Of a DNA stretch of 64,000 nucleotides, positions 14,119 to 58,593 are shown piece after piece. The translations under genes and the position numbers were made by a program. How positions within the stretch are numbered: the first letter of the stretch is position 1; every line of letters starts with the position of its first letter. Where the stretch lies: positions 4,096 through 68,095 of the forward strand of contig JAQUSB010000006.1 in the NCBI GenBank assembly GCA_028715345.1, written 5' to 3'. The notes beneath the pieces are model-generated. The model was not told where the DNA came from and made no database searches. It saw only the letters and a program-made list of their open reading frames with translations. The DNA comes from Candidatus Omnitrophota bacterium (GTDB taxonomy: Bacteria > Omnitrophota > Gorgyraeia > 2-01-FULL-45-10).

Positions 14119-14488
14119 CGGACGGGTCGAAAATACGCTTGCCTATCGCTTCGAACGTCCCATCCTTCTTAAGTTTCCTGAAATAACAGGTAAAATACCC
14201 TTCGTGGCAGGCCGCGCGTTCCTGATCGACTAAGAATAATAAAGAATTGCCTTCGCAATCTATGCTCATGCTCTTCACCGCCTGCGTGCAGCCGCTCGTC
14301 TCGCCCTTAAGCATCAGGCGTCCCTTCGAGCGCCTGAAGACGTGCACCTTGCCCTCTTCGAGAGTTTTCAGGAGGGCGTCCCGGTTCATGTAGCAAAGGG
14401 TAAGCACTTCTTTCGTCTTCTCGTCCTGGATTATCGCGGGGATCAGCCCCTTGTCGTTAAATTTCAATACATCGAATATTTTTTTCAT
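14102..14488 (-). CDS. hisI: Phosphoribosyl-AMP cyclohydrolase (monofunctional HisI)
   Basis: 128 aa. LIPAIIQD...[12 protein letters not shown]...[10 protein letters not shown] motifs. No fused HisE domain. Confidence 0.85.
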
Positions 14489-23254: not shown

Positions 23255-23371
23255 TTTACCCTCCAATCTTGAAGTCACAACTTGTGACATCCTCCCATCT
23301 ATAAAGACGGTTTTCGCCCCGATTTGTTGCAGCCGATTTTAAAATAATTTTGGCGTCTATTTTTCCGGATG

Positions 23372-25703: not shown

Positions 25704-25802
25704 CTTTTCCTCCATTTTTTCTAAGGCAAAACTTGATGTTCCAATTTGGCACTTCAAGATGTCTTCACATATAAAGACGATTTTTCCGGTAGATTTATTG
25801 CG

Positions 25803-25888
25803 AAATATTTTAAAATAAAATGCCCGGGCGCGGGATTTAGGTACGCTAACTCGGGGGGAAGCGCCCTAAATCCCGTTTAACCCGGGCA
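25803..25888 (-). terminator. Rho-independent terminator of the giant gene
   Basis: On the minus strand, a GC-rich imperfect hairpin (GCCCGGG...GGGAUUUAGG / CCUAAAUCCC...CCCGGGC, about 19 bp paired; 25821-25888) is followed by UUUUAUUUUAAAAUAUUU (25803-25820). It lies 16 nt after the giant-ORF stop (25904-25906). Confidence 0.8.
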
Positions 25889-25903
25889 TAAATTTGTCTT
25901 CGA

Positions 25904-28900
25904 TTACGCGGCCATTAGCGCGTCTTCGACCATCTTCTTGTAATGATTCAGCCTGTCCTCTACGTCGATCTTTGTAACAGGTTTAAATCTGAGTATTACG
26001 CTAAGCGCTAATGCCAGCGAATCCGTAAGGATCTCGTCGGTAACCTGCACATCGCCGAAGAGGAAATTCATCCCCATCTTTATACGGGCAGTGTCTTTCT
26101 CCATCATCGCTTTCGCAAGGTCTGCCACCGCTTCAAGGTAAAGGTAGTTGGTCCCCTCGAGTTTGCTTATGACAAGTATCGTCGCCTTCAACTTCTCAGG
26201 ATTCTGCTCGAGACCGCGCTGTTTGCATAATCTTGTAAATTCATCGCGCGTCATTATGCAGGCCGCCGTCCCCTCGCCCGCCGTCCTGTCTACATCTTCC
26301 CTCGACGCTATCTCTTTTATCTCATCGAAGGACCCGACCCTGACCGGCTTATCGTTACCGACGAGTCCTCTGAGATGCTCGGCGTCCTCTGTTTCGAAGA
26401 GCCTTTCCGAAAATACTATCTGCGCGCCGGCGGGAAGAGGGGTTGCCGCGAGGCTCTCCCTGAACCTTCTATCTGCCGCGGTTATCATATCGCTTACCTC
26501 ATCACCCGCATTCGCGCCGGCGGCATCGGTGACTATTTGCGTCTCATCGGCCAAATCGTCTTCGCCATCCGAACTTCGGCGCTCCGACGCGGCGCTTGGC
26601 TCTTGCTCGGGTGACGGTTCGACCGGGTAAAAGCTTTTCATAAAACTATCGACTTTGGCCATTGCCTTCTTGATAAATTCTTCAGCTTCGGGACTTGAAC
26701 GTATGTGTCTGTATGCATTATCAAGCTGATCCCTGAAGTTTATAATCCATGCTGAGCTTTGCCAGACACCTGTAGATTCTGCATTAGCCGCACCGTATTT
26801 TTTGATTATCGCCCTTGATAATGTCAAATAAACTTCCGTCCCGATATCCATGAGGTCGCACAAGGCGTTAAAATCTACTTCTGCGCTATTTGAATAACCT
26901 CTGCTGATATTACCCGAAATCGCATCGGGATCGCCTATCTCTTTCTGCAATTCATCAGGGGTCATGACACCCCAGAAAAGCCAGTTAATATTCCCGTTTA
27001 CTATATCGCGCGTAGATTGGTTTAAAACGGGATGGCGTTTATTCACAGTGTCCTGTATAAGCTTGGCAATAAAACGATATGCCGTTACTTGTTTTTCATT
27101 TCCTATAGCCTTATTATATTCAAAGCGGCCGCCTTCTACCATTTCCGCAAGCGTTTGTTCCGTAACATTTTCATTCCAGATAAGCTCCTCCGCCCCGGCG
27201 CTTGGCGCAGGCGACGGTGCGGCGGGAGCAATGCCAGTATTGTCTACAAAACTTATTCCTAATAAGTGCGCTAAAGATCCGAGCTTTTCGCAAATAATAG
27301 GCAGGGTTTTACGCAGAGGATGAAGATCAGGGATAGCTGACCTTGATTCCAACCTTATGCCTTTACTTTTTTGCGCTAAAGATATTCCGGCAACTAAGCT
27401 AGGCATATTGTCTTGTGTTGATAATTCGTTTGTATCATAAAACTCTATCCTCCATTCGTCATAACTGGCTGAAATTGTCCAGGCAATACTAGGACATTCA
27501 CTGGATAATGGTTTTCCAACTCCAAAATGTAGCTCAATATAAGAAAATGGATCTCTCGTATACCTAGCCCTTGCAAATTTAACCACGCCTGGGATGCCCG
27601 AAGCTTCTTCCGGCTTTTCAGGCATACCGCTGGCAAATCTCAGCGCTCCGCCCGACCTCAAAGGACTCTGCATTTCTCTTAGCGCCTGCGTATCGGGCGC
27701 GGTCGGGCCTCCGGCCTGCGGAAATATAGCGCGGTGTTTCGCGCCATCGTCTCTACGCATCGCACCGTCTACTTTATGCGCTTCACTTATTTTCGTCGTG
27801 TCGTCTCCGACCTGCGAGCTTCCGCGCCCGAGAGCAGCGGCAGGCATAGATGCGTCGATATCAAAAAGTAATTTTCCGTCCTGGTTAAAGACTCTAAGGG
27901 ATCTATCAGGGAATTCTTTTACGAAGAAATCCCTGAACTCTTCCGCATATTGGTCGTATACTATTACCCCGACAATAGCTTCAGGGGGGACATATTTTGT
28001 ATGCACCTCATCATGGGTAGGATCCTTTACTAAATGCGCTTCTTCGTATCTTATATTGCTATATATACTACCGGTTTCATCCCTGTAATTTGAAGACATA
28101 ACATGCGTATCTTTAAAAAATTCGCCGCAAGCTGTAAAGTCATTGATATGCTGCCGCAGGTAATACGGGCTGATTATCAGCGCTAAATCAAATTTATGAT
28201 CTTTCCAAAGCTCGTCGCTGTCTATACGCCATTTCAGAGCCGGATCTGGGGCGCCCCAAATGCTATTGCATGCAGATGTAGAGGAATAACCCAACTTGCC
28301 CACCATAGATAGCGACACCTTGCTGGGATCACCGCGCCCGACAAAATCATATTTTTTGAATCTAGGAGGAAGGTCATTCCACGGTTTAATGCCTTCCCTG
28401 AATATCGATAATAAACTATCTACTCGATCTTCAGGATCAAGGTGAGCTGCAACATGCCCATGGATAAGAAGCCCCGGCGTATTAATATCGGTTACTGTCG
28501 TAAATAGCGCAACGTAAGTTCGTCTTAGCAGCGCCTTGTTTTTATACAATACCGGCGTTGCGTTCGGCAGCATATTCTTACGCCAGTCTATCTGACTACT
28601 GGCGTCAAGAAGATTTCTATCGCCCATAGCCGCCCGCATTGCGCTCGTCTGCGTTCCATGGCCAAATGCCACTACTGTACGATTTTTGTATTGCGAATTA
28701 AGTTTTATCATGAGGTCTCGGCTGCGTTTTATCATATCGATAAAACTCTGCCCGCCCTTAGGCCGGATCGTCGCGTCTAATCCTTTGCGATACCTTGTTG
28801 CTAATGCCGCCTCTTCCGCGCTTAATTGATCTTCTCTTTTATTATCCCATATGCCGAAATTGATCTCGTTTAAAAGCTCGTCCGGGGCCGTCTCTACAAC

Positions 28901-31900
28901 TACGCCCGTTCTCTCTTTGACTAGATCTACGAAGGCCTTTGCCGTATCCTTTGCGCGGCTAAGCTGGCTTGTAAGAATTACTATCTTTTCGCCGGATATT
29001 ATCCTGACTTCCAGCTGCCTGAACAATTCTATAGCTGCCGAGCCGGCCTGCTCCAGGCCTCTTTTATTCAGTTTATTTATCGGCTCATCGAGCATTCCCT
29101 GGAATATGCCTTCTGCGTTCCCGTACGTTTCTCCGTGCCTGACCATCCATAGGTCGAATTCGGGCTCTATGAACCCGGCCTCGCCGAATCTTATTCTGCC
29201 CGTACTGTCATCTACGAGAATGCTGCCCCCCATATCCTCCGGCCGCACTGCAGCGTAAGGATCGGTACCGGTTTTCCTTTGGGGCACGGATTTTTTCGGC
29301 GGCACAATCACAACTTCTTCGACAATCTTGTCTATACCCCCCTTGCGGTAGATCTCTGCTCTTACATCCAAATCGAACTCGCTTAACATTATGGCAATGT
29401 TTTTAACTAAAATAGACCGCTGTGAAATAGCCCGCGCCAATTCGTTCTTAAGGTTATCTTTACCTGTATCTATGCCTACGGCCTGCAGAAGAGCTTTAAC
29501 GTGGGGGTTATCCAAACAGACCTCTGCAAACATTCTCTCATCCAGCGTAGTCAGCCTTGTTAATGTCCTCATCGTTGCGTCTATTTCTGAAACGACATCT
29601 CCGCTGGCATTCGTGGCCATATGGTCTATCTCATGCGGTATGCTGAAATGTTCAAACTTTGCCCTGCGCGCGCTCGTAGCCCTGCCGGTAATAATATCGC
29701 TCACTTCTTTCTCCGAAACATAAATAATAAATCTGCCGTTAATAAGCCTTATGATGGAATCCGTAGGCAAATCGGGACTGATTGCGAATCCTATATCCCT
29801 GCCCGTCCCCGCCGCGTCATGCACAGCTTTAATATTGACTAAGTAGGACAATTCTTCCGGAGTAGGCTGCCTGTTTTTTACTGAATCCGCAAAAGCGCTG
29901 CTGCCTACCGAGACGACAAATGGTGAGCGGGATTCCCGCCTATGAAGGCTCACACCCACGAACAGGCATCTTATCTCATCTTCCGTATATGGAAATTTCA
30001 TAATTGATTTTTCCGGATCGTATTCCGAGCCAAATAGGTCATTACCGTTATCGATGAAATCCTCTCTTCGGAAAGGATTTTTCATGAAATGTCCGGCGAT
30101 CCTTTCATCAAGAAATACGCCTTCTATTTCGGTAAAAGAATCGGCGATACGCTTGTTAAATGAATCGATATTATCGACAAACTCCCTGGCAGCATCCGCT
30201 GATTCGGAAATATCTCCCACGTCAAAAATAGTCAAATCATCGTCTGATTTTCTTATCCCGTAATTTCCCACGATATTATGAGTATCGATGTCGACGACAC
30301 CTCTCTTATACATCGCGATAACGAGCCGTTTGAATTTATCGACATAACTTATCGCGCGCTTCAATTCATCGTCACTGCACCCTTTCCGCCCCAATGGTTT
30401 TAAATAATCTATAAGAGGCAAAACCTTTCTTTGCACGATCGCTACTTTGCTCTCAACGCGTCCCTGGGTTTCAGTATAAAAAACGAACGGTTTTTGCTGT
30501 GCGGCGCGCGTATCTATTATCATGAGATCCGCGGCAGGGCCCTGACCCAATCTCTTCATCGCTATCTTCGCGCCATCCAGCGAATAGATATCGGCATACG
30601 CCATCGCATGTTCACCGTTCGGCACTTTAGCCACAAACCCGTCTGCCGGATCTTCGTCTTTGTAGCAAATCAAGTATCTGCCGACACCTCCATAGCTAAG
30701 CATATCTGTCCATACAACGGCTTTCCCGGAGGTTTCAGCGGACGGTTTTAAATTTTCATGAACTTTCCTTATAGCGCTTACAAGGTATGCTGCATCTACT
30801 TCCAGCGCTTCTTCTATTCCTATCCGATTAAGAATATCTCTCTTCTCTCCGATATTCTTGGCCGTCTCCGCCTTTTCTATAACTTCGAAATCGACAGTAT
30901 TTAACTTCCTAATAAACCTGTCAAATACATCCCACCTGCTTTCCTTGCGATCCGATCGCCTTCTCGGGCGACCGCCAAAAGGCGAAGATGCCGGCCTGTC
31001 ATTATTGAGAAACTCGTCCCCACCCAGCGAGCTTCCGTGCTCCGCCGCCACGTCCGGTTCTGTTTTCGTCGCAGCCGGCTTTGTTGCGCTATATTCATCT
31101 GTCTTCTTTACAAAAACCATACTCGGGAAGGAAGGTACCATTGAATTCGGAACTTTGTAACCGGTAAATCGCGCCGCAGGAAAGAACTTTTCGAAGTAAT
31201 TATCGGCCGTTGTAAGATTAAGAATGATAAACATTGCGCCGGGCTTAGCCTGACCGGCAAAGTTCCTGTAAAGGGTCTCCTGTTCACGCGGAAAAGCGCC
31301 CCTATCCACATAGACGACTATATCGTATCCGCTCAGATCCTTCTTTGTAAAATCATTATCGTTGCGTTCAGCCGGAATATTAACTATGCCTTTACCGATA
31401 ATGTTTTCACCCTCGAGGGCCGTCCTGATTTTAGCGGTCAAACCCCTTAGTTTATCATCCAATTCCGATCCGTCGGCCAGACCGGCTCCGCAGACAGCCG
31501 CCGTAAATAGAACGTCACCTCTTCCCGAGCCGGCATCGAATAACTTCTTACCCTTTATGCTGACGGGCTGTAAATTCTCATCACACAGATTGGCGAACAA
31601 CTCCCGGAGAGCGTAGATATCCGAACCGACATAAATGCCGACATCGCCGTCGACGCCTGTCGCATCGCCTTGTTGATACGGAGACTGATATTCCGGTCTT
31701 GAAAGGACACTGGAAAGGCGGGCTATTTTTCCATCTTCGATCCTAGAAGCCGCTTTGGCCTCTTCGCCCTGCGTGTTTCGAGGCAGCGGTATTTGAATCT
31801 TAATAATGTGTCCTCCGGGTTTCGGCCCTTCATGCAAAATATCGTCCTGCCAGCCTACTGTAATAGACGCTCCTTCCGGCATTGCTATAGATTCCTCGAT

Positions 31901-55900: not shown

Positions 55901-58048
55901 CCTCAAAGCTACTATCTCCTGGATGTGCCTGCCGGGCCCTCTTAATAATATCCTGCCGCTATTTATCCTCCTTACTACATCCGGTTTCAGGGCATCGACC
56001 AAGATCTCTGTATACGCGATCGCCAATTCTTCGCTTATCTCAAAACCAAAGATAACAGCCTCGGCATTAGTATCTTTAACTATAGTCTCATAGTAAGGCC
56101 GGGGCGATAATCCAGGATCATAGCCTGTTATGATCTTAATATCTCCGGAGTCGACATATCCTTTAGCCGCGGAAGTAAATACTGCTTCGCAGGCATTGTA
56201 GATCAGGCTCGCCCATTCCTGCTTCGCACTTATTACCTGCACAATAAGAGTCTCCGGCTTCATTTGTAATTCGGACATTGTATCCTTAAGCCATGCCGAC
56301 CTATCGCAGTTATCCAGCAGGTCCCTCGCCAAAGCGGGTATGCCCACTTTTGGCCCATCATCATACTCCCATAAATACAGGCGTTTCATGGCCCCGGCAT
56401 GGTTTCCTTCCGCTACCATTTGCTGTAAAGGCGTTATTAAACGTTCAACCGCCGCCTCGACATAACCGGCCTGAAAAGACTTTATGTAATCAAAAACTTC
56501 TTTAAATGCCTGCTTTCTCCATTTCAATATTTCATCCAAATGTTCTATCCAGCCTTCAGGGGGTTGGCAGGATTCGAATATGCCGGGACGAATACCGGAA
56601 AGATATTTATACAACTCCTCGGTCGATTTAAAAGAAGGGTGATCTATATTTAACGTATCATGAATAAATTTATCCGCCTCGGCAACTGTCCATTGAGTTT
56701 TATTGTCGGGATCATCCGGTTTAGGAGCATTACTGAAATACGCCGTCGCCGCAATACCTGAAAATATACCTATGAGAATAGCTCCTATGGCAAGAACACT
56801 GCTCCCTGACAATTTGCCTCCCGCGGCGCCGAGCGTAGCCGCGAGAAGATCGCTCTGCAAGATCAGCACAAGGGCTGTGGCAAATATACCGTAAAGCGTA
56901 AATCTATTAAGTATGGCCGCGGCTATTCTTCTCCAGAAAGGAGACGCGCTTACGGCCGTGTCAGGTTTCTGAACTTCAGGCGCCGGAGAAGATGCGGCGT
57001 TAATTGCAGGCGAAAATTTTTGTAGCGCAGGGGCATCGAACGCGGAAATTATTTCTCCGTAGTAATGGTTCCCCTTACCCCACACGCCTTTTATTTGCGC
57101 TTCACGTCTTTTCAAATAGTTTTTATGCGACGCTACTGCATCTTTTACGCTTACAAACCAGAATTTCGCGATGCCCGCTCTCCATAATTCCATAAGAGCA
57201 AGGTCCATAAGGAGAGTGCCTGTGCGCTCTTCTCTATAAGCAGGCAATACCGCCCTGTAAGCTATATACCCTACCTCTCCGGTGTCGCCTTTATCGATAG
57301 TATAGGCCGTAAAACCTATCACACGGCCGCCCTTGTCGACAGCAAGTACCACGGTATTATTTTTAAGCATAGAAAGGAATTTTTCTCTTAAGCCTCTATC
57401 CGCACCTTCCCTGGAGAGATACCATATATTAAACAGCTTCGTGGTGAGATTATCGACATCGTCCTCATATTGCTTCATATAGTCGCCGGGACGATAGTAG
57501 GAAATGTCGTGCTTCCGGGCGGGTTCTGTTTGTTCATGCGGCGGCGTAGCTTTTTTAGGCGCCGGCAATTTCCCGGTCTTGAGATATTGTATCCGGATGG
57601 GACTTCCCTCAGGCATTTCTAGCTCTTTGATGGGCTCGGTCGAATATTTGGACGGCCCGGCATTGCGGTCGTAGAACCTGAGCATATTTCCGCCGGCTAA
57701 CGTCACGAATATTTCGGTTTCACCTTCGGAGTAAGGCGTGGCCCTGAAATTCTCATTTTCGAGCTTATTCAGGACGCTCCTTACGGCAGGCAATTGGACA
57801 GTGGCAAGAGGTAATCTCGATTTTATTATTTGATAAAGATATGCGGCATAAGCATCATCTGAGGCATGCTTAAATAAAGATTCGGGAGCGAGTTTACTAT
57901 TTTCGGACCTCGAGCATGAGATCGGATCGGGATGGGCCCAGGCAATATCCTGAGCAAGGAAAGTCACGACCAGGATCGACGCTATGATCCTGACCGCTTT
58001 CGGAAACCTGCGTGGTAGTGGTTTTTCTGCGCTCGCTTCGCTATTCAT
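25904..58048 (-). CDS. Giant multidomain secreted/membrane protein (~10,714 aa from ATG 58048)
   Basis: Single uninterrupted reading frame of 32.2 kb. The ORF-finder extends it to a TTG at 58108.
Domains (plus-strand nt): signal peptide (~57950-58020); GNAT fold (~57050-57400); SAM-MTase folds (~55560-55990, 50480-50960, 48400-48780, 41800-42180, 41140-41560, 31220-31570); GHKL ATPase (~54430-54880); HD domain (~38060-38400); kinase-like domains (~36600-37100, 33750-34400, 30000-30600); histidine phosphatase RHGETYGN (~28560-29170).
TM clusters (plus-strand nt): 56720-56930, 54180-54420, 51250-51520, 47040-47470, 44590-44900, 43030-43470, 37560-37720. Confidence 0.85.
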   Translation of the reverse strand: MNSEASAEKPLPRRFPKAVRIIASILVVTFLAQDIAWAHPDPISCSRSENSKLAPESLFKHASDDAYAAYLYQIIKSRLPLATVQLPAVRSVLNKLENENFRATPYSEGETEIFVTLAGGNMLRFYDRNAGPSKYSTEPIKELEMPEGSPIRIQYLKTGKLPAPKKATPPHEQTEPARKHDISYYRPGDYMKQYEDDVDNLTTKLFNIWYLSREGADRGLREKFLSMLKNNTVVLAVDKGGRVIGFTAYTIDKGDTGEVGYIAYRAVLPAYREERTGTLLMDLALMELWRAGIAKFWFVSVKDAVASHKNYLKRREAQIKGVWGKGNHYYGEIISAFDAPALQKFSPAINAASSPAPEVQKPDTAVSASPFWRRIAAAILNRFTLYGIFATALVLILQSDLLAATLGAAGGKLSGSSVLAIGAILIGIFSGIAATAYFSNAPKPDDPDNKTQWTVAEADKFIHDTLNIDHPSFKSTEELYKYLSGIRPGIFESCQPPEGWIEHLDEILKWRKQAFKEVFDYIKSFQAGYVEAAVERLITPLQQMVAEGNHAGAMKRLYLWEYDDGPKVGIPALARDLLDNCDRSAWLKDTMSELQMKPETLIVQVISAKQEWASLIYNACEAVFTSAAKGYVDSGDIKIITGYDPGLSPRPYYETIVKDTNAEAVIFGFEISEELAIAYTEILVDALKPDVVRRINSGRILLRGPGRHIQEIVALRHVFPDAEITVADINWNNLFEIKNMLEARRDIRGKDKIVLAHTSFDRMSCFDGGRFDAEMSNYVIDDSLGGITNAGFINHTIPLWLEETKRVMRTGGVYLSYAANPDQLTRSGFSVKELGQRFDFDRCKVVASQDASVFRDDIASNRSDIDSVWDVLSKKRMRSGPLMLGLIVLTLFPGLKDLLDRKLRACIDFIAAIISRPHGQRGDDYGIMVEKVKEFGHDFDSCMRTILTLAEFVQMSKTQNREILAYCSAITAYCDCLRLISIDAGWYNATGENREKMESDIRNFTGSCRGLLPLLSDDNIGRLLNEYDSQYPGEEKPVDPRDFEYSVKTVAWILGTADQPYEFDINEILDVAVHWELRRHNIRCEISSGNIAAFGVKSEIFRAVLNVLRNAREKVAEIDGGRVTIDAVMDGNEIVLTISDNGPGMEPEKVRLFNEDAIVGSDKAPDRIGSGLNIIREMIQKRGSVKASAVYDGPERGTTFTFRLPVTPKKGPTPVIMVGIVPVIAFPRLFDWLKTKRGNLTDFIKSESAALGIGMTAKAVLVFAILGVSIIKILIALGLIPGFNEFLKEAVPWLAVVAGVSISGNLLTEPVKKTSPRHSAPRKAIVALNKKAIALIAPGKFDEAYAAIEEACSILDKNKDDPETADVRKEVGHVIDTLRSLLIRLSKKGQLDREKIVVDRMYRLFAEFRIGLYNDITRAKGPLIAKASSLLANDLMRARGGENYPETKELLDRAYRIFLFLKIRKEDALVEEIKPQLQYIEGCYCDLATIIKGKDIKTARLMVEKARRIFDLYKDDPAAVGMNKEAAFVMAGYQNIAVTLAQTDPEGAEAALDTACEIYEGSKPNKEAFEAIRSNAHHFIITHNNLGNIFWEMNMKDKARLDMLYKADKMLGRACRLLNELKPATTNLKAQVKPMMNIQNKIALSFVRAGKYYNASVTLSRSYQLFKEYKDDPVTRNVKDGARYVLNAYLRLCEETHRTAGIVGDKKYGSRILSEAANVAKDIVMIPYLDPDVYARADDILRIADPNRAGAVADVEYPDLVMADAKARRRLLSSAEMYGTPLYVLRNYFKGVREAARAQKMDPEEIKRDINEEYKKYGRTAPVEGPREGFIRILSDKDIQDAVAPLPDFLLKDITYRRIDPMEGDIGAISFQDQLPDGVIYRGEIAIPDIPRDLLASAVQAMIDTEVAPSRPLLSEADQVEFLRETYKLVIAHEVGEVFSHAMYPHLDAWFKTVFLYREKKSLERISRSGASDPRHELCDSMMLYFHPGHPLLRKYSISDEEKSVIAELLHIASQRPHSAYFVSNHVDKFSERVEKIPAVEYVMHNHIRFKYLFNIKLIEEAAAAAGLMLKHEKDKAEGQLDIYDGENKCGYIGISRSFGRGHAVSSHTIIEIQPDIGIPPLAKVEKFINYLNEKTMSDNAAAAKGVLWILKRPVIWLAGKLGKQIDDDEYDDEIAPIIEEGIFTGLPLALYPNSFGVFILFRLAFIALHLFSARSPAQFIEKTAIPSLISVIVTLPAIIAINATGVSAIAANVSAVLVAMLIHSAINMLVPDINQKLKSLGIKFRIEKAAIKKKGKAADSLDQAGPEQEKEPAENTVHETGYSALADFIDIAVNRGHQHLILENGTIFKRGMDWDDLSAAIDELDVKGKSVLYIAEGPDLIPLFMLATGARQVVVYDIGNRYIIEEWKGVVSTHRRFFGRSGIDLEEALSIHAGSISDTVKTANIGSQFDRIVCVNIINPRSYKSEGWVDKAPGITGRAGLISLVNIIKSSLNKDGGKIYYNMAGPAEPDIDAEFRKAVCGDIFDIKGSKESFGWRYYSLKDEEYRSAPAHIIELSKKSGAKPQAAEAGATSPAIVNVELEAGRHILSAVLADVDTNNPLKRNGIKFRDFTDDKGKYKYEVWGVQHEIETGGSSYSPLIIEMRLNSATEMIECIFTRSRDGVQTVRMAEMNSAGYYVLGGAIKKMHKDYSSYDKVGTAIRVAIGKVKDMIDNRGLIEELARHNGISSGEISRILNASYERMEAYLKDGLLYEFEAQKIRERGKAPKLIFCDERGLYVCSYILDPEKGNDALAKTLPLMVLKALSRSIAPSPAAAKKFMKIMDPEDELDVVQMQRDMGRKEAVIMDPEPLFPVEEIISTAFELYMESGYIRKPALKDVVERLNLRRSNDRKMLLTTAQYKLKKLIISGTISAGDLQISDTDFLRKAVAGKPDDDEMDGDDEDDEYGDENENIGPSEPVTVKKGKTGQRRKAGGGKSRPAWWSGRRGAQWVPAAVYDAAAGALIGAPGFEIGREMARTAQRFGAKAFLRMDEISGQGRTDTGNEVLQNDKEAEVNTEQNEFLALIWVSRRFSKTEEMFGGEAAPAIRGVMQEARSAGHSPRGLVIGAGAGHYIYDMRKQFPELSLDFINKNNIRLHERHYRLLGPDYQEFTDYFFKNIREHDVDRGLPFPDGSFDVLIITFESLRYMRQKNMILRECKRVLKKGGIAFIEGVECFDVCDGSGRVMDPGELCDWLNAASEKPQYRHYEAQGSGRKMYNLRIDNLYPEVSFPEMEPVSEPEVNIVDCRPAGKLPPTYICHYRIPGNQSLAVTADDRQIGKLDIDILRKLGCDSHFIEAAEYFNSVSGEPLTWPKIITLFELYRGDRQNPEYTDEIKQQRISSAEESLGYILELVNHKYANGENVIAYAGDIYAHIIQREIFIGGGRRADFSGEDVLLRGFDTIPDLSGGNTHPASGHHRLAWFLMNYLLIGNGYTPLYLNKSEWEQEGVLGAVGSRKIADVLKARVKKIKHAAVPVKRNAESESGFASRPPSGIGWFYSLALLPPLEAWVRVCWYEMGKGIGGLAGGWIGLIAASAILILLHDVNTKRYVEIYKYHNGKAPSAAGTAMAVFIMPSVVALISLWLTYVYAAAPASFLYKEYLIYHVLANIIVILHNKIFPKTPLMPASPQLFRTPISGEQIAKLRALMEQAELPEEKFLVMMREQFGITSLDRIPDEILYIHEIRRMIKEYGAEERFMRSQGYTIRSVPPASISETEITEGREWLIAAINEEARIVGIVKANWGADRVDFGAETLLEKMLLDGNRSDALNRLSALRRLEPGELNSDTAGKILKAMREKADMFAPKVFYDRICKDGIVPPGEEMRARVWDELADRLKSSMPGWDRKLTPAVLYRVLDVLDAARESLRCYKEGLNALPVSYVRRMVKRLAVGRDKQYAASDTYFVNMDSEDEALVDEQEKAWREASNHRKKIENAAAKRLRKEADAIKSRKDQAAIAGKWRAIPLNIQAGADMRRYANRVKGIGAKTAGLLKDGSLRARAIIYDYPEYSDSFELLTSTSDNETNSAERLANGNIVFVVRGRPQIRNMDTGAYVSLADGEGNYISNANCITVDEKESIFAAAGDGRVFEYGPDGRFIKEYDTADKEMEAEPASMAVFERKLYYWDYARQSIMVMDLTSGEKERVGSSLYGGNGYDRTECMEVHLSIDRVNRILIVAGHPEVYVMPVSIVNFFDIDRKAFVNDKKASAEGAANPAAAVFNYIINQPVGIMHGRDGTGTRFYIAEETVSSPARIHLYTETAEGFREAGYIPVPFGKVFGLTVSPDSGSLTILGYLKHYEVKKCLGVYELSAEAVNTLLRKTETGRDIVGMIPWVSYLFDKKGWDKRGQSRFEQKWFGIGNLLLSAALAYFSDYNLLLALCGSIAVTWTLFFAAHAISAPGVRGPPLSDALAIALLNAVPLFVVSILYLAAVLPLAAAVILAALIYYRTSGIHHEQNLKYFKYEQEIFAKRLAPSRLDVTRRQFDFTAMNVMYGAGSMLSRFSLLRPMGEVIKTYAESRTDSTLLDEPMPIRARTNIEGYDAIDRAFRAQAESGNVRVPLNNQMINIFLVSQGMLLKEWHRIIDLPENKSLKDKVAAAEEKARDKVRKRHPSWQRYLAAELNESGISISERRKFLPYIQIGFVNKETRRELTETGCFNEVIAKILPQQLEVERALGSMPHQDLAELDARIGRGEGLNLPEIKRKALRQLEKDIVRLKVFLADMRDGKYFNGIRGDVIDYLLIETEIGRLENNLKVLTSTTAPSEARPQGAVKKMAAGRVPQNPLKSTDGPRSYLKPAGDWLTSDGMPEDLGGGTPRPAPQDRLPGSRVKEDGESANLLSGKIDKAPVVSLEDMDDDRPSGSIALSSSSGISWFSSLIIMPLLEEGVRVMGHNMGEGVGGIIGGLAGVIFASLLLVLLHDVNVPRYVSLYKANNNKEPSASDTIQGVFTAPIAVMLISLWWTFKSPGAPAICLYAGYVITHVIVNIIIMVYNKLFPKEPLMPASLKIEHERYQEGHHKVYFTIKSGPHRLGDIKYDLDPVNYPGKIYVNYLYVYDETRKEDVRFRLMKLVLEDAKGYKKDVVMPSIVKKEIKAYAKIAKRLNIGIKLEGGRLVFMASVPLPDKQKTASKSNPDPYLDIRRSPDNGEDRVFPRREESRPGMAVNAIGMYGPAKKAIRIEKRLGELENDKMPKLKVIELREWLTAQQIMEAGMKYRVTSPDFNTEDAYVSTSIAPQENTRYHFVGNFIEEAMKTDTGPYSFKPDLKGANVLFIGPGTNPKAITRLIKQYPEIGAIHLVDVSWDVFYALDYFLDEQFHGKPTPKIYGYRMNVLELPEEFTGMMDIVTERCIFDTVKAMPFDRGQAAQARKEIGRILKPGGIHISVEPFAITRYPEDPFVRFVGKFSLNVPYIDDISGTVEETAYVHIKMAPENRQTGPTVTKPITASVIADAMDRELGTYDWMRSNTAYMIDGIGIGQDDDVLCIGSGPLADHAVFSAIKGARVDLCQPPYYEIRDIGAIEQTKCFEGKVNFYKRLMEKIFGYDMIGERIDTGTYRGRVQDVDLPKNHYSKIFLLNVLDELGDSERNDLIAAVLPLSKPDGVILLSALSRDKEPQMIGSLIRIGKMCGYEIKETGRIFEYDKRVYELKVIRADSRAQVKTEGRKAAVGGGRQRPWPGRHGAQWAAAAASAVIKGDILGTLGREIGNEMIRTARNFGARAFRSVEDLQGGGAPAYGEASAIATLNVDMHGKPAGAMASILLSAGLNFREDLKIEYSMIERGGGVSPIKNRFDAGGIMLNTSDLVPGARIKIFVNSNKLSSRACQVIADHIAAAAALYKEEGLFDAVPVKGTVIALAESNGTFIEALKKEGVDIARYHVQPNYKHWLHPTERNDMKELQDGYRADPGVSHAEISDFIKSIEGDLFAALKEEGVSDLQSRESGVISVLLAELLSERFNVPIGGNDEVRIEVTPGLYKNKDAPDIYHAWAAVYTGNEKPALYIDAAFGRFGSEYKDTIIVGPYSKKDRHLKDMRTFFTEILTELGMSIADAEALSGMPQGRRTEQRIVAAYKEYLRAESMRRGEALFPSGTAERDLIERLKKRLAMPAPRDLFASGGKVMPGPISSRRISWQEALARKNDLLKIISRHEGRAALYVHIGGKYVADPHEREVYLANLKTALREETGVVFVIGGDYENLQDVETRAVIVDVPSVTPYNPTPSIGVRVDLDTTEGCRPAWKKLVVAMREMGVEEISPFGGELAEFSSSGGVRVADEDLSGCVGSALYFLQDDFPVKVFPQLCAASSGNRHINVRSSIGLGSYRIRAPAHSDLLADTASMAPVSRPAPLIPVAYTSSGFLNRYLQENPSNKGWLYHRTWIGVIWLILSRNEVSLRRPTWFLNRVPLLEVAKGMGLGRKILETPSIALAFDAKKLVDLGISFSPDFGVISNKAVPLSALTDDSKKELIKALVALSFISPDFPLPDSQKIASVLGFEDVNEVSRLLEEALPGPDSESTALRESLNELLLWGGRGGQYDIRKTLDFVSSDRLGYAKAFTAAGRKLYGHTLIVARNFERSGMAGDLPKIPNLDVPALFRLTLMLHDIGKPMAEDEGDKNRQYTYTPQIIRKLMNRLKFTPAEIDFVVSLIEKDSIGLMVRGIKSVDEAFAEIKDMAIKSGVGLENFFKILTIFYISDVSAYGFGQSITPDGRHIRNDHYNALAKRVSEAAAEKNAAVKKKIIAAYGLEGELSQSVTAENKGLDGLGESGSAPIFNIIKILPLALVALAVYYNYGLVPAAAVMTAAFAGILAWNMLGDYYLRWASEAWQKARLDPEVNKGRVESYYNTLAVVAAAAERLRIGELPLKEKLTPPLNIGILNEDFSLLWCIDNLQEAIRALYPDSPLISEPAPYGSAVVRASDLHAYLEQVLRVISNDKGGQPKITRAPAKIDISRLNTGQAIILGGKEYEVEKRNFAHGGDDKKLVVEVDTGLRFIIEPIEGREKEIELCGGFLKHPCHAKVHAVYKDEGVYLMPDYGTLSLAEHIRYSALEGMPLREYLSARVNEIIWLYEAVSEMHSKGIAHGAVDAERPHILYSSGLPHIVDYEIPYRDGERDYRMCLYGDLRALLGIAECVAKEAYQAYGENDDVKRLTAEIRSMISELPFLPDSSAAVTSSGRIIKQLSGYLDSIGMVRLPAPSYGKNALMRTYPAGRQISPYKTSSGAVWTFGIGDTMDVGPEEQVRIVVGNPPEETDPWGESDIGRTNTPRPAPKTENASAPGAEYDWIKTEAKKHASIIYEFLASEMRRLDAKQEYMVFIGGAGYKLYVLARFLAPDFGLDPDADIKYLDFPRTIYERSPKDGILSYLRKNKNIVGNDERHARMVDVMWDGHAIDRLNEYLEILYPGRFAPLERNKNCILFARHPDANLDIPGFNDTVGFDEIKQKNIEDAAIWLEASLRAPARYVGGVDTAGNIIPCTINRGIISQQPAKLELAPARIDAVGEEIELSVLQEEIRSLHIKEKTGRESLPAPDRDAKPQVEKAQAAAAGVPDKPEMQPGKEGMDRRAFLEAGLMSPFQISPLGHIIVGKVASSSGIPAEAIEAVYTDLFGKCLPETTVEYWDRIQEDHAYAYVDAYPAEIAKLQKETGRSIGESISAYIARRLLSRGDALIAKIKRYRDIVASGEGPIELYPILLDRLTGNTIYDSTRKNAAQNKLDLGRQVDYLIARRMDSIDTENELLEKIRKAKEGGEEYENLERSLRERIVQNEKAIAALREFAKHTDDAQRETIIKLCDERIKHYHGAVEIFKTNIRANAPIYGEKWGEFIANRLSRSGAAVQNKEAAPVPSGDNAVVRAQMPGEGKGEKFIPGQTVKGQARSFVITGLGPRQHAMSNIYEAEDIGASSKVAIKYNVKLIEADFINEIAMAKRLSTRGYKFIPRFIDAAPDNSWYAMEWIEGEDILTWSRGKKPETVLGAVKEFIDAADKLSEEGIVYSDYKISHMLVTAEGGFRLTDFGSWFISGDRQNVFETYQWKIGDTLAVLATGEVNIPGGVENPDKLKEYITGSGSGDWLPFAEMISQIKSGMYKSFKEMRAAVDMAIAASAEPAKPQGGAANQLSVAKTAVPQAMRGRIKALDDFGGNPLHPLPSEARGVWQPQVSRRDFMKWTAAMAKGLAVPDGEGVIAAFKSMENLGTPEANKDWARIVYVFSQNPTLFTRLRTELNVARLYPDIPGFIRRQYGQVVMEAIYKVRMAEAGLGRGVIQYKLLPTDSKDWTDSVPEDVSLDEAFHDKAAPAISMQEADAKLNSMVNDICLQAEPMFADRDFRGTITEALQGELSLNSRKEILLLRWLEDMFYKGPDEVARRIKRALELDQEASSAAFEELTKAIFKVTPMTGRDIIIMGIPEARIVRFKTSERKIWARLVYTDVEKRFGYASEKLSGVMRVLGRVLPDDMRSMIFQSKGAQAFNAYWSKERAVWRQAWQEAKQAVLREDAAVSEKPAEAATPQQTAVAEGKDTAIPKPGKYARIEPDAAGIPVHTSRKTGPVPAFAETEIDLTKVDLFKIDTGKPLAEKVMKAAEENNFSVQLRKDAGVEASAPEAMELFLKHVLMNIIANLKHHEYRYSFGGGGTASNYVVARIYPCNEPYDGIRLEIWGPGSNKLPEELTAKEWFTTKDRPWPGEKAPNSARGVKTGAGGGVSAMFYALETIEESIAMPEGASITVGWQDDILHEGPKPGGHIIKIQIPLPRNTQGEEAKAASRIEDGKIARLSSVLSRPEYQSPYQQGDATGVDGDVGIYVGSDIYALRELFANLCDENLQPVSIKGKKLFDAGSGRGDVLFTAAVCGAGLADGSELDDKLRGLTAKIRTALEGENIIGKGIVNIPAERNDNDFTKKDLSGYDIVVYVDRGAFPREQETLYRNFAGQAKPGAMFIILNLTTADNYFEKFFPAARFTGYKVPNSMVPSFPSMVFVKKTDEYSATKPAATKTEPDVAAEHGSSLGGDEFLNNDRPASSPFGGRPRRRSDRKESRWDVFDRFIRKLNTVDFEVIEKAETAKNIGEKRDILNRIGIEEALEVDAAYLVSAIRKVHENLKPSAETSGKAVVWTDMLSYGGVGRYLICYKDEDPADGFVAKVPNGEHAMAYADIYSLDGAKIAMKRLGQGPAADLMIIDTRAAQQKPFVFYTETQGRVESKVAIVQRKVLPLIDYLKPLGRKGCSDDELKRAISYVDKFKRLVIAMYKRGVVDIDTHNIVGNYGIRKSDDDLTIFDVGDISESADAAREFVDNIDSFNKRIADSFTEIEGVFLDERIAGHFMKNPFRREDFIDNGNDLFGSEYDPEKSIMKFPYTEDEIRCLFVGVSLHRRESRSPFVVSVGSSAFADSVKNRQPTPEELSYLVNIKAVHDAAGTGRDIGFAISPDLPTDSIIRLINGRFIIYVSEKEVSDIITGRATSARRAKFEHFSIPHEIDHMATNASGDVVSEIDATMRTLTRLTTLDERMFAEVCLDNPHVKALLQAVGIDTGKDNLKNELARAISQRSILVKNIAIMLSEFDLDVRAEIYRKGGIDKIVEEVVIVPPKKSVPQRKTGTDPYAAVRPEDMGGSILVDDSTGRIRFGEAGFIEPEFDLWMVRHGETYGNAEGIFQGMLDEPINKLNKRGLEQAGSAAIELFRQLEVRIISGEKIVILTSQLSRAKDTAKAFVDLVKERTGVVVETAPDELLNEINFGIWDNKREDQLSAEEAALATRYRKGLDATIRPKGGQSFIDMIKRSRDLMIKLNSQYKNRTVVAFGHGTQTSAMRAAMGDRNLLDASSQIDWRKNMLPNATPVLYKNKALLRRTYVALFTTVTDINTPGLLIHGHVAAHLDPEDRVDSLLSIFREGIKPWNDLPPRFKKYDFVGRGDPSKVSLSMVGKLGYSSTSACNSIWGAPDPALKWRIDSDELWKDHKFDLALIISPYYLRQHINDFTACGEFFKDTHVMSSNYRDETGSIYSNIRYEEAHLVKDPTHDEVHTKYVPPEAIVGVIVYDQYAEEFRDFFVKEFPDRSLRVFNQDGKLLFDIDASMPAAALGRGSSQVGDDTTKISEAHKVDGAMRRDDGAKHRAIFPQAGGPTAPDTQALREMQSPLRSGGALRFASGMPEKPEEASGIPGVVKFARARYTRDPFSYIELHFGVGKPLSSECPSIAWTISASYDEWRIEFYDTNELSTQDNMPSLVAGISLAQKSKGIRLESRSAIPDLHPLRKTLPIICEKLGSLAHLLGISFVDNTGIAPAAPSPAPSAGAEELIWNENVTEQTLAEMVEGGRFEYNKAIGNEKQVTAYRFIAKLIQDTVNKRHPVLNQSTRDIVNGNINWLFWGVMTPDELQKEIGDPDAISGNISRGYSNSAEVDFNALCDLMDIGTEVYLTLSRAIIKKYGAANAESTGVWQSSAWIINFRDQLDNAYRHIRSSPEAEEFIKKAMAKVDSFMKSFYPVEPSPEQEPSAASERRSSDGEDDLADETQIVTDAAGANAGDEVSDMITAADRRFRESLAATPLPAGAQIVFSERLFETEDAEHLRGLVGNDKPVRVGSFDEIKEIASREDVDRTAGEGTAACIMTRDEFTRLCKQRGLEQNPEKLKATILVISKLEGTNYLYLEAVADLAKAMMEKDTARIKMGMNFLFGDVQVTDEILTDSLALALSVILRFKPVTKIDVEDRLNHYKKMVEDALMAA

Positions 58049-58092
58049 TTGCCCTATATAATGTTTTATTCTTTTAACAAGACAAAAATAAA

Positions 58093-58131
58093 AAGACCAG
58101 ATCGCCAAGCGTCTCTAGGCTATCTGGTCTT
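58093..58131 (-). other. Perfect 10-bp inverted repeat hairpin plus T-tract in the giant-gene leader (terminator/attenuator-like)
   Basis: AAGACCAGAT (58093-58102) and ATCTGGTCTT (58122-58131) flank a 19-nt loop. On the minus strand the hairpin is followed directly by UUUAUUUUUGUCUUGUU (58072-58092), about 25 nt upstream of ATG 58046-58048. Confidence 0.5.
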
Positions 58132-58293
58132 ATATTAAGATATATTTATCGTAAAATGTAGCTAAATATATTTTTCTTAAGACCCTCAACTCCCCCGAGT
58201 TTTTTAGCGGGGATCCTAGAAAATATGTATTGTAAGAATACCATATTCCAGGATATGAGTCAAGTGCTTAAAGCTAACTTTTTTTACTTTAAC

Positions 58294-58482
58294 CTATTCC
58301 TCGCCCTTTTTGAAGAATTTTGTCCTGATACCGCTGAAATCCTCGATGAATATTCTGCAGAGGTAATTGATCACTTCGCTCACTTCCCTGTTATTCTCGG
58401 TGCACATTCCTTTTATCTTCTCTTCGATAGATTTACTCGTCCTGCACCCCAGGAACCCATCGCATCTCTTTAACTTTTTCAT
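58294..58482 (-). CDS. Small Lys-rich, 4-Cys protein (62 aa) directly upstream of the giant gene
   Basis: ATG 58480-58482 preceded by perfect AGGAGG (58486-58491) at 3-nt spacing. MKKLKRCDGFLGCRTSK...GMCTENN...YLCRIF. The ORF-finder's longer TTG-initiated version is rejected. Same strand as the giant gene. Confidence 0.45.
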   Translation of the reverse strand: MKKLKRCDGFLGCRTSKSIEEKIKGMCTENNREVSEVINYLCRIFIEDFSGIRTKFFKKGEE

Positions 58483-58593
58483 ACGCCTCCTAAACTTGTA
58501 TATCAAATATTATACACATAAATACCTATCTTGGCAAGTTTATTCTGCCACGAGCTAGCTAAGTGCCGCGAGTTCTACGAGCGGCCAAGTTTA

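Follow-up and report, generated by a model that had tools for sequence, protein, structure and literature searches.

Relation to described giant proteins

Among 916 Omnitrophota proteins of at least 10 kaa (thousand amino acids), Nielsen & Lui (2026, bioRxiv 10.64898/2026.06.07.730766) described a 'multi-enzyme' class and, by Pfam co-occurrence, a Module 1 made up of PF08241, PF02518 and PF00583, accompanied by HAD and HD. In the same catalogue, proteins of at least 10 kaa carry a mean of 22 transmembrane (TM) helices, 80% of clusters are singletons, and flanks were examined only for giants of at least 80 kaa. A second group, the archaeovorin-type giants, with Velamenicoccus archaeovorus as the type, was reported by West-Roberts et al. 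(2023, bioRxiv 10.1101/2023.11.21.568195).

We analyzed a giant gene in a 64-kb stretch of DNA, hereafter the window, whose positions serve as coordinates; unless stated otherwise, the features below lie on the minus strand, as the gene does. Judged by its Pfam set, TM helices and length, the predicted protein belongs to the multi-enzyme class, a further addition to the thousands of examples already catalogued. A sequence-only reading of the window had found the architecture unassignable to any described family, a view that did not hold, as all three Module 1 core families are present. Protein and class also agree in phylum (on the best available evidence), in length above 10 kaa, in a signal-like N-terminus with about 20 TM helices, in a sequence that is unique at full length, in having no single Pfam family dominant by copy number, and, marginally, in HD. 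They differ in that HAD was not detected in our protein, and the flanks examined contained no secretion, pilus or glycoside-hydrolase genes.

With archaeovorin-type giants the protein shares the phylum, many TM helices, methyltransferase, GNAT and HATPase_c domains, strong domain divergence and a largely unannotatable sequence. However, it is shorter by a factor of three to eight, searches of it revealed no glycosyl transferase, glycoside hydrolase, peptidase, NUDIX or SecA_DEAD domain, and no type II secretion or carbohydrate-import system adjoins the gene in the window. MARTX-type toxins likewise combine several unrelated enzyme modules in one very long polypeptide. Here the likeness is one of functional analogy only; our protein has no RTX repeats, no cysteine protease (CPD) domain, and no sequence or fold relationship to them.

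A single 32-kb gene in a variable chromosomal slot

Counted from its first TTG, the open reading frame (25904..58108) comprises 10,734 codons, and it ends in TAA at 25904-25906. None of its codons is a stop, compared with 283-757 stops in each of the five other frames of the same DNA, where a stop occurs every 14-38 codons on average. A log-odds model of codon usage, trained on neighbouring housekeeping genes, favoured frame 0 in each of 35 consecutive segments of 300 codons, confirming the single uninterrupted frame of the sequence-only reading; the score of the giant gene was lower than that of the housekeeping genes and lowest over the final ~800 codons. The ORF contains no tandem or direct DNA repeats able to cause misassembly, and only 2.2% of the protein residues are of low complexity, as the same reading had maintained. 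The 32-kb ORF is a genuine single gene.

Sequence inspection suggested that the ATG at codon 21 (58046..58048), directly 5' of a signal-like segment, is the likelier start, giving a product of 10,714 aa. This segment (aa 21-58, 57935..58048), a putative signal peptide or signal anchor, consists of a positively charged n-region (KPLPRRFPK) and a hydrophobic core (38-56), followed by AWA↓HP, in line with the Sec-type signal peptide claimed earlier. At the other end, a strong intrinsic terminator (25820..25889), a 70-nt hairpin (-47.7 kcal/mol, z -5.95) followed by UUUUAUUUU, lies 15 nt past the stop codon. A promoter-like site, TTGACT-17-TATTCT with an extended TG (58235..58263), was located ~190 nt upstream of the ATG by consensus match, the count of such sites being not above that in shuffles. 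Between pgpA and the giant gene lies a 62-aa ORF (58294..58482) with an AGGAGG Shine-Dalgarno sequence and an upstream TTGCCA-17-TATAAT site; it had no Pfam match.

The gene is surrounded by the trp and his operons, alaS, recA, cinA, pgsA and ftsK. The best genome matches of RimO were two Omnitrophota MAGs (51% and 47% identity), and FtsK matched the same contigs at 54-64% identity. All named relatives of the giant-protein modules, such as MDD5495714.1 and HPS19383.1, are likewise Omnitrophota proteins. Flanking housekeeping genes, at 47-64% identity to MAG contigs, and named relatives therefore point to a Candidatus Omnitrophota origin and bear out the parallel with Omnitrophota giant genes that had been drawn earlier. 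In one MAG (L002), the order ftsK-rodZ-rimO-pgsA-pgpA ... thpR-cinA is conserved, and in place of the giant gene the interval between pgpA and thpR/cinA contains ordinary genes over 5 kb, encoding BaxI, a methyltransferase-GT2 fusion, a methyltransferase and two membrane proteins. By this comparison, the chromosomal slot that the giant gene occupies, bounded by pgpA and thpR/cinA, is variable.

A mosaic of modules shared within the phylum

An exhaustive HMMER search returned 121 module-level matches to the giant protein. The relatives, found within Omnitrophota proteins of 1-7.7 kaa, matched at the level of modules only (25-48% identity), and their module order is shuffled among P0001, P0102, P0013 and P0009. 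The search yielded no relative collinear with the whole protein, and therefore none is an orthologue; at full length the protein appears sequence-unique. Module-sharing proteins from Omnitrophota MAGs include MDD5495714.1 (4,428 aa, annotated 'GNAT family N-acetyltransferase'), HPS19383.1 (7,381 aa), MDD5427994.1 (5,057 aa) and MDD5422919.1 (partial). What these large proteins share with the giant protein are individual modules among M2, M3, M5, the 4-helix TM module, the module at aa 3323-3525 and the GHKL domain (all described below), whereas module order and other content differ, the relatives having glycogen phosphorylase, sugar transferase and HAD. On this evidence, the giant protein is a mosaic in which modules from a phylum-wide pool are joined in a lineage-specific order.

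Enzyme domains

Folds were assigned above threshold using Pfam at the gathering score, plus phmmer against PDB sequences. Recognizable content had been called dense along the whole length, but Pfam domains at or above the gathering score cover only 4.5% of residues (8.4% with weak matches), and neither a fold nor a relative could be assigned to about 69% of the protein. Four Pfam families exceeded the gathering score, and Pkinase and HD matched weakly. Among the predicted folds that stood were a GNAT acetyltransferase (PF00583; aa 247-331, 57116..57370; E 3.5e-7, 31 bits against a gathering score of 20.7), one histidine-kinase-type GHKL ATPase (PF02518 HATPase_c; aa 1117-1227, 54428..54760; E 2.8e-14), at which no HisKA/H-box was detected, and a histidine phosphatase with an RHGE motif (PF00300 His_Phos_1; aa 9653-9828, 28625..29152; E 1.9e-25). 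The HD phosphohydrolase was marginal: a probable H...HD motif region (aa 6601-6671, 38096..38308) gave a Pfam E of 0.027 and E values of 0.1-0.25 with several NCBIfam HD models. For a possible second GHKL there was no lenient Pfam match and no homologue in two word-indexed searches.

Where at least six methyltransferases had been proposed, four methyltransferase-fold modules were supported, three of them indirectly. The direct case is a class I SAM methyltransferase (PF08241 and relatives; aa 3122-3230, 48419..48745; Methyltransf_11 at aa 3124-3228, E 9.5e-9). Module searches and relatives identified M2 (aa 5232-5453, 41750..42415), a methyltransferase/spermidine-synthase-like Rossmann fold whose relative P0030 matches PF01564 (E 5.7e-6), and M3 (aa 5497-5737, 40898..41620), a class I methyltransferase fold. 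A paralogue of M2 at aa 717-841 (55586..55960) matched the M2-family HMM (E 8e-7) and has the relatives P0100 and P0035. The remaining candidates, at ~aa 2380-2560 and 8845-8960, had neither a lenient Pfam match nor a homologue in two word-indexed searches. The same was true of two of the three proposed kinase-like regions (~aa 7000-7150 and 9130-9330). The third (aa 7922-8046, 33971..34345) scored 28.5 bits with Pkinase, under the gathering score of 31.7, and contains VAIK, the catalytic D-x-K and DFG (at 8043).

Structure prediction allowed us to recognize the 4-helix membrane module and a Pfam-invisible module, M5 (aa 5950-6100, 39809..40261), with a transglutaminase/papain-like fold. In M5 the His and Asp are conserved and a Ser (~aa 5986) stands in place of the nucleophile Cys.

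Membrane segments and topology

About 20 hydrophobic helices are grouped in 8-9 clusters, in agreement with the 'about eight' noticed earlier. These include a hairpin at aa 399-458 (56735..56914), a cluster of 2-3 helices at aa 1235-1328 (54125..54406) and one of about 4 at aa 4395-4495 (44624..44926). The last hairpin lies at aa 6805-6846 (37571..37696), and the remaining ~3,900 aa contain no hydrophobic helix. No Ig, cadherin or RHS arrays were found. As had been noted, the protein does not belong to the classical repeat adhesins or toxins; the broader description of a giant gene for a membrane-associated protein alternating TM modules with group-transfer enzymes and phosphatases also stands.

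Two clear copies of a 4-helix membrane module, aa 3550-3690 (47039..47461, ending in LMPAS) and aa 4913-5063 (42920..43372; AF2 model with 4 helices, pLDDT 82), are 54% identical, and further copies occur in four other Omnitrophota giants. The module has the invariant residues E21, R25, H56, N59, H118 and N122 and is bracketed by MP[GA][SN] motifs that are absent elsewhere in these proteins. A weaker third copy (aa 2195-2294, 51227..51526), with EE / FxxxH / HxxxN motifs, marginally matches the Rce1-like family PF02517 (E 0.16, profile positions 14-92 of 93). Compared with CPBP/Rce1-like proteases, the family threshold is not reached and motif 1 is spaced EExxR rather than the canonical EExxxR. 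Neither clear copy matched Pfam at or near threshold, a profile search of PDB sequences found nothing, and structural similarity to CPBP proteases was no better than to generic helical bundles.

Most soluble segments are probably cytoplasmic, because the clusters seem even-numbered, their flanks positive and the short loops poor in Lys/Arg (a heuristic K+R density of ~4% in odd short loops versus ~14% in flanks and ~15% in middle loops). This conflicts with the Sec-signal-like N-terminus: a cleavable signal, if functional, would place the GNAT region outside the cytoplasm and, with even TM clusters, everything else too.

Possible functions

We consider it reasonably probable that this single Omnitrophota gene encodes a membrane-tethered scaffold, a mosaic of several enzyme classes with mostly cytoplasmic enzyme segments. 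Its parts would be a GNAT, at least four methyltransferase-fold domains, a histidine-kinase-type ATPase, a kinase-like domain and a histidine phosphatase, together with a probable HD domain, a transglutaminase-like domain and the repeated 4-helix membrane module. The polypeptide would enter the cytoplasmic membrane during its translation, and about eight helical hairpins or 4-helix bundles would hold it in place. Most large soluble segments, including the whole C-terminal ~3,900 aa, would then face the cytoplasm, which would supply acetyl-CoA, SAM and ATP to the enzyme modules, and the scaffold would co-localize acetyl-, methyl- and phosphoryl-transfer with phosphate removal at the envelope. 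We infer both the topology and the catalytic competence of individual domains, and the substrates may, as a guess, be proteins or envelope precursors. [quoted passage not shown] West-Roberts et al. (2023) likewise regard such giants as extracytoplasmic effectors, and the signal-peptide-like N-terminus with its AxA site would suit a rather unlikely alternative, an exported, surface-tethered effector for an episymbiotic or predatory lifestyle. The chain would be exported through Sec by the N-terminal signal peptide and re-anchored by the TM clusters, and its modules would act on a host or prey cell or within it, using the acetyl-CoA, SAM and ATP of that cell, much like a multi-effector toxin of the MARTX kind or the cell-wall-attack model proposed for Omnitrophota giants. 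However, Lys and Arg near the TM clusters are distributed in a way that favours cytoplasmic flanks, and enzymes that depend on cofactors would not work outside a cell. Searches of the protein revealed no glycoside hydrolase, peptidase, adhesin, dockerin or SecA_DEAD domain, nor do type II/IV secretion or pilus genes lie within 25 kb downstream or 6 kb upstream.

Compatible with either topology, though improbable in our estimate, is a self-processing polyprotein in which the 4-helix modules act as intramembrane proteases and split the chain into several separate enzymes, with internal twin-arginine-like motifs possibly routing some fragments for export. The recurrence of the module (two clear copies and one weaker here, more in four other Omnitrophota giants), its invariant residues, bracketing MP[GA][SN] motifs and CPBP-like motif order, the marginal PF02517 match of the weaker copy and the two motifs at aa 7558 and 8187 are consistent with such processing, and C39/S8 self-cleavage has been proposed in other giants (West-Roberts et al. 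2023). Yet the clear copies match neither Pfam families, at or near threshold, nor PDB sequences, the EExxR spacing departs from the canonical motif, the transglutaminase-like module has no Cys, and the twin-arginine-like motifs fall short of the gathering score and may be remnants of fused genes. As internal, N-terminus-like elements, these motifs suggest that once-separate genes were fused. Nothing positive favours an artefact, be it an assembly chimera, fused pseudogenes or an ORF untranslated as one unit, and we regard it as highly implausible; the only hints are these motifs and the depressed codon-usage score, lowest near the 3' end. A stop-free run of this length cannot come from chance or random indel errors, the coding signal stays in frame 0 without repeats that could mislead an assembler, the modules have conserved homologues in other genomes with evident purifying selection, and the gene ends in its own terminator.

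Other modules and motifs

A helical TPR-like repeat region (aa ~1340-1800, 52709..54091) gave weak TPR_12/TPR_1/TPR_2 matches, and two copies of an Arg/Gly-rich linker repeat (aa 2986-3056, 48941..49153; aa 5708-5776, 40781..40987) are 46% identical. No fold was assigned to the conserved module at aa 3323-3525 (47534..48142; HPAxGHHRLxWFLMN), common to two Omnitrophota proteins, or to M4 (aa 5768-5944, 40277..40807), which has an invariant His and 5 relatives. The module at aa 9872-10091 (27836..28495) is shared with the Omnitrophota protein P0013 at 33% identity, and that at aa 10538-10734 (25907..26497) is C-terminal in the relative P0009 too. A twin-arginine-signal-like motif, SRRDFMKW, lies at aa 8187-8200 (33509..33550; E 0.003, under the gathering score), and a second internal motif of this kind, MDRRAFLEAGL, is present at aa 7558.

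A 32.2-kb open reading frame forms a single gene

The giant open reading frame (ORF) lies on the minus strand at window positions 25904..58108, exactly where an earlier sequence-only reading had located it, and terminates with a TAA stop; counting from the first in-frame TTG, it has 10,734 sense codons. Residues are numbered from this TTG; counted from the ATG at codon 21, which is the likelier start, the 32.2-kb gene encodes 10,714 aa. The remaining five frames over the same DNA carry 283-757 stops each, and a log-odds model of codon usage, built from 20 housekeeping genes in the window, preferred frame 0 in 35/35 consecutive 300-codon windows. The giant scored lower than the housekeeping genes in this model, with the lowest values over its last ~800 codons. 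Tandem Repeats Finder and a repeat finder detected no tandem or direct DNA repeats, making misassembly via repeats unlikely, and low-complexity residues make up 2.2% of the protein. The giant is a real gene, with a chance frame excluded, and we regard an artefact as an extremely remote explanation. Stop-codon reassignment was rejected, as all three stops are absent from the giant frame and the adjoining genes terminate normally.

Recognisable domains cover a small part of the protein

We scanned the giant with Pfam in overlapping 1,200-aa tiles. Scores above the gathering score, the Pfam family cut-off, were obtained for GNAT (PF00583, aa 247-331), HATPase_c (PF02518, aa 1117-1227) and Methyltransf_11 (PF08241, aa 3124-3228). 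Pfam also matched His_Phos_1 (aa 9653-9828), weak TPR at about aa 1350-1700, and Pkinase at aa 7922-8046, the last with 28.5 bits against a gathering score of 31.7. PDB phmmer and NCBIfam concurred with this inventory and added no new domains. The GNAT, GHKL ATPase and histidine phosphatase named in the sequence-only reading were thereby recovered. The density of recognisable content that it described reflects motif reading rather than detectable homology, as domains at or above the gathering score hold 4.5% of residues.

Rescanning at lenient settings (E up to 5) returned marginal matches to HD at aa 6601-6671 (E 0.027-0.16), where several HD-type models converge, and to Methyltransf_11 at aa 5388-5429 (E 0.15). 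Across ten suspected regions (five methyltransferases, two kinases, HD, a second GHKL and a Fic-like stretch), lenient Pfam gave the marginal HD match and nothing else. The proposed HD phosphohydrolase therefore stays at marginal matches; among the proposed kinases, the one at aa 7922-8046 keeps its sub-threshold Pkinase match while the other candidates have none, and the possible second GHKL found no match at all.

The GHKL domain is predicted to be of the histidine-kinase type. Unlike a two-component sensor histidine kinase, it has no HisKA/DHp domain, or H-box with a phospho-acceptor His, detectable upstream of HATPase_c by Pfam or NCBIfam; full-length histidine kinase models begin to align at about aa 1076, with scores far under their cut-offs. 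A single HEIDH (HExxH) motif occurs at window 29621-29635 (aa 9492-9496), within otherwise unannotated sequence N-terminal to the histidine phosphatase; a metalloprotease at this place was rejected, the motif being alone and matching no metalloprotease family.

Two internal motifs resemble twin-arginine signals, MDRRAFLEAGL at window 35384-35437 (aa 7558-7575) and SRRDFMKWTAAMAKGLA at window 33509-33550 (aa 8187-8200), the latter matching Pfam TAT_signal below threshold (E 0.003). They look like the N-termini of once-separate exported proteins, an appearance that would fit a giant enlarged through gene fusion.

The giant is a mosaic of modules found in other Omnitrophota giants

A word-indexed protein search with aa 3541-4740, 6900-8100 and 8540-9400 returned no match, not even the giant itself, and hence gave nothing to align with the candidate kinase-like and C-terminal regions. 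A collection of 185,579 species genomes contained no relative of the first 1,280 aa. When aa 4901-6100 were searched exhaustively with HMMER against 1.84 billion representatives, 121 proteins were identified at E <= 1e-3, each matching one module of the tile only and many measuring 2,000-7,700 aa themselves. All named matches were proteins of Candidatus Omnitrophota MAGs, with PGAP names taken from whichever single domain had been recognised.

When the whole giant was compared by BLAST with 128 relative proteins, common modules appeared in shuffled order and none of the relatives was collinear with it. One Omnitrophota protein (P0001) carries the aa 3323-3525 module, then module M5 (aa 5950-6100), then a four-helix membrane module (the TM module); another (P0013) combines M3 (aa 5497-5737) with a module matching aa 9872-10091; a third (P0009) combines M3 with the giant's C-terminal module, which is C-terminal there too. 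Further domains in the relatives include glycogen phosphorylase, sugar transferase, HAD and methyltransferases, as in published multi-enzyme giants. These comparisons indicate that the giant is a mosaic of modules common to other Omnitrophota giants and, as a whole, sequence-unique. The sequence that Pfam leaves dark can be broken down into discrete modules, which reappear in a different order in other Omnitrophota giants. Two of them can be described: a transglutaminase-like fold, and a conserved four-helix membrane unit whose polar residues form a catalytic-looking set.

M2 (aa 5232-5453) and M3 are assigned by profile evidence to class I methyltransferase-fold families. One M2 relative, a stand-alone protein, matched Spermine_synth above threshold, an M3 relative matched Methyltransf_23 weakly, and both profiles gave weak but mutually consistent, in-register PDB matches to spermidine synthases and SAM methyltransferases. 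The M2 profile also picked up aa 717-841 (E 8e-7). Counting the Pfam domain, support extends to four methyltransferase-fold modules; six had been proposed from the sequence, leaving two that were not supported.

Profiles of M4 (aa 5768-5944), M5 and the TM module found no matches among PDB sequences. M5 is modelled as a transglutaminase-like/papain fold invisible to Pfam. His80 and Asp97 are invariant, and the Cys present in 10/12 aligned sequences is Ser in the giant. M5 resembles transglutaminase-like/papain-fold cysteine enzymes in fold but has their Cys-His-Asp triad without the Cys. This Pfam-invisible module may be novel at the level of detail. An HPr-like fold for M4 was rejected, as the resemblance was by eye and had no profile support. 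The aa 3323-3525 module (window 47534-48142), common to the giant and two other Omnitrophota giants, contains a conserved HPAxGHHRLxWFLMNxLLxxNG(Y/F) segment superficially like a Fic active-site helix; a Fic domain at aa ~3480-3510 was rejected because the GNGR core is absent and HMM support was lacking.

An Arg/Gly-rich linker of ~70 aa (..GGG.xRPW.GRxGAQW...GREIxxEMxRTAxxFGAxAF) occurs in two copies, 46% identical, at window 48941-49153 (aa 2986-3056) and 40781-40987 (aa 5708-5776), whose order differs relative to the duplicated TM modules. Tandem duplication as the giant's origin was rejected, since internal repeat pairs number only two and block order is not kept.

Membrane modules and a proposed cytoplasmic orientation

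Hydropathy analysis gave ~20 helices in 8-9 clusters, none beyond aa 6846, close to the roughly eight clusters seen from the sequence alone. The two clear copies of the TM module (aa 3550-3690 and 4913-5063) are 54% identical, and the module is also present in four other Omnitrophota giants. A six-copy alignment showed invariant E21, R25, H56, N59, Y67, K68, H118 and N122 and a terminal M-P-A motif; the pattern MP[GA][SN] is confined to TM module borders. AF2 modelled the module as four helices (pLDDT 82), and a Foldseek search against the PDB was uninformative. Its motif order is similar to that of CPBP/Rce1 proteases, with invariant E-x-x-x-R, x-x-x-H-x-x-N and H-x-x-x-N in the six sequences, but the relatives space the first motif as EExxR against EExxxR in CPBP. 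A weaker third cluster (aa 2195-2294; EE / FxxxH / HxxxN) is the source of a marginal Rce1-like/CPBP match in the lenient rescan (PF02517, aa 2195-2289, E 0.16, 12.7 bits against a gathering score of 22.4), whereas the clear copies have no such match. This recurrent four-helix E/R/H/N/H/N module with MPxS borders may be novel at the level of detail.

The clusters appear even in helix number. The first and third short loops have a Lys+Arg density of ~4%, compared with ~14% for the flanks and ~15% for the middle loops, a distribution that under the positive-inside rule would put the long soluble segments on the cytoplasmic side. A signal peptide that functions at the N-terminus would be in conflict with this reading. 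From the ATG, the N-terminus reads MNSEASAEKPLPRRFPKAVRIIASILVVTFLAQDIAWA, followed by HP after the putative cleavage point, and is shaped like a signal anchor or a Sec signal peptide.

The gene occupies a variable slot in a conserved neighbourhood

The neighbours of the giant are all housekeeping genes on the same strand, with the trp and his operons, alaS, recX, recA, cinA and thpR downstream and pgpA, pgsA, rimO, a RodZ-like gene and ftsK upstream; genes for secretion or pili are absent from the window. The top two RimO matches in 185,579 species genomes came from Candidatus Omnitrophota MAGs (51% and 47% identity), and FtsK matched the same contigs at 54-64% identity. Together with synteny and the named module relatives, these matches place the giant in an Omnitrophota(-like) genome.

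In an Omnitrophota MAG contig (JAKQAH010000139), the order ftsK-RodZ-like-rimO-pgsA-pgpA is kept and thpR and cinA follow in unchanged relative orientation. The gap between pgpA and thpR is ~5 kb there (11129-16232) and encodes a BaxI (Bax-inhibitor)-like protein, a methyltransferase-GT2 fusion, another methyltransferase and a pair of polytopic membrane proteins that are dark to Pfam. These genes are stand-alone versions of part types fused in the giant. The conserved gene order around a differing interval shows that the giant occupies a variable slot in a conserved housekeeping neighbourhood; such conserved-slot insertion may be novel at the level of detail, and the two slots offer a concrete before-and-after pair for studying giant-gene origin.

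Two ORF6N-domain paralogues, 59% identical, lie on the minus strand at window 22718-23290 and 25191-25757, flanking cinA-thpR on both sides immediately downstream of the giant, and are absent from the equivalent place in JAKQAH010000139. The ORF6N domain is KilA-N-like and often associated with phage or mobile elements. The pair may indicate that the slot is mobile or hypervariable.

Comparison with described giants and possible modes of action

Giant, TM-rich, domain-divergent genes were reported to be concentrated in Omnitrophota (West-Roberts 2023, 10.1101/2023.11.21.568195). A later survey catalogued 916 Omnitrophota proteins of at least 10 kaa, or 5,761 with NCBI MAGs, with singletons making up 80% of clusters; it described a multi-enzyme class whose Module 1, defined by Pfam co-occurrence, combines PF08241, PF02518, PF00583, HAD and HD, and found SP+TM topology in 39% and a mean of 22 TM helices (Nielsen & Lui 2026, 10.64898/2026.06.07.730766). 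The giant shares with Module 1 the phylum, a length of at least 10,000 aa, a non-repeat sequence and the co-occurrence of PF08241, PF02518 and PF00583, all above the gathering score; among the accessories, HAD was not detected and HD was marginal. Its ~20 helices and signal-like N-terminus, determined by hydropathy, resemble the SP+TM/TM classes of DeepTMHMM. It differs from the Archaeovorin type in length (32 kb against >90 kb), in having no glycosyl transferase, glycoside hydrolase, peptidase or NUDIX match in Pfam/NCBIfam (E up to 5), and in lacking SecA_DEAD and SecA preprotein-binding matches and a Walker A motif. Dockerin and TSP3 repeats of the dockerin type (West-Roberts 2023) are absent. 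In contrast to repeat adhesins, RTX/MARTX, RHS and NRPS/PKS proteins, it has no Ig/cadherin/RTX/YD repeats or condensation/KS modules; the sequence-only reading had rightly seen no Ig/cadherin/RHS arrays, for which Pfam gave no matches, and internal tandem repeats were found at neither protein nor DNA level.

On these features, the giant appears to belong to the already described Omnitrophota multi-enzyme class. The likeness to Omnitrophota giant genes inferred in the sequence-only reading was correct and can be upgraded, given the match in length, phylum and Module 1 core, and its view of the architecture as unassignable is superseded by that class. Omnitrophota giant genes are an open problem, with thousands catalogued and nearly all sequence singletons. 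We know of none with a demonstrated function. The present gene adds little to the catalogue beyond three reusable points: its slot, its modules and its topology.

The giant was shown to combine several enzyme folds with a multi-anchor membrane architecture. It would insert into the membrane co-translationally, leaving most enzyme modules at the cytoplasmic face, where acetyl-CoA, SAM and ATP are present, and would act as a scaffold, tethered to the membrane, for acetyl-, methyl- and phosphoryl-transfer activities and phosphatase activities. TM-flank composition and the cofactors that the enzymes require argue for this cytoplasm-facing scaffold, a picture unlike the cell-wall-attack model preferred for the largest giants. 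We lean modestly towards this mechanism as a whole, a real mosaic gene encoding a cytoplasm-facing, membrane-tethered enzyme scaffold. The signal-like N-terminus and the way in which SP+TM giants have been interpreted in the literature would instead suit an exported, surface-tethered effector, but the charge distribution around the TM clusters and the absence of CAZymes, adhesins and a secretion context speak against export, and we consider it rather unlikely. A self-processing polyprotein cut by its membrane modules would fit either topology and seems quite improbable. In its specific form, the TM module would be an unrecognised, Omnitrophota-giant-specific intramembrane protease family, module-bounded fragments would be set free as separate enzymes, and internal twin-arginine-like signals would re-target some of them; we hold this to be highly doubtful. 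If true, self-cleavage would account for the cellular use of 10-150-kaa ORFs.

Transcription signals around the giant gene

A 70-nt hairpin (-47.7 kcal/mol, z = -5.95 against shuffles) 15 nt past the giant stop, followed by UUUUAUUUU, is predicted to be an intrinsic terminator. Another terminator-like hairpin at window 57966-57997 (minus strand), within the first 50 codons and over the signal-peptide coding region, is probably a chance consensus match. Rfam identified no structured RNA in the window, the giant's leader included. Two sigma-70-like sites lie upstream of the giant; because the promoter count was no higher than in shuffles, they serve as leads only. Between pgpA and the giant gene, a 62-aa ORF (MKKLKRCDGFLGC...) on the minus strand at window 58294-58482 has no Pfam match. 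It has a strong AGGAGG Shine-Dalgarno sequence and an upstream sigma-70-like promoter (11/12, 58537..58509), and could be a candidate small regulator of the giant gene.
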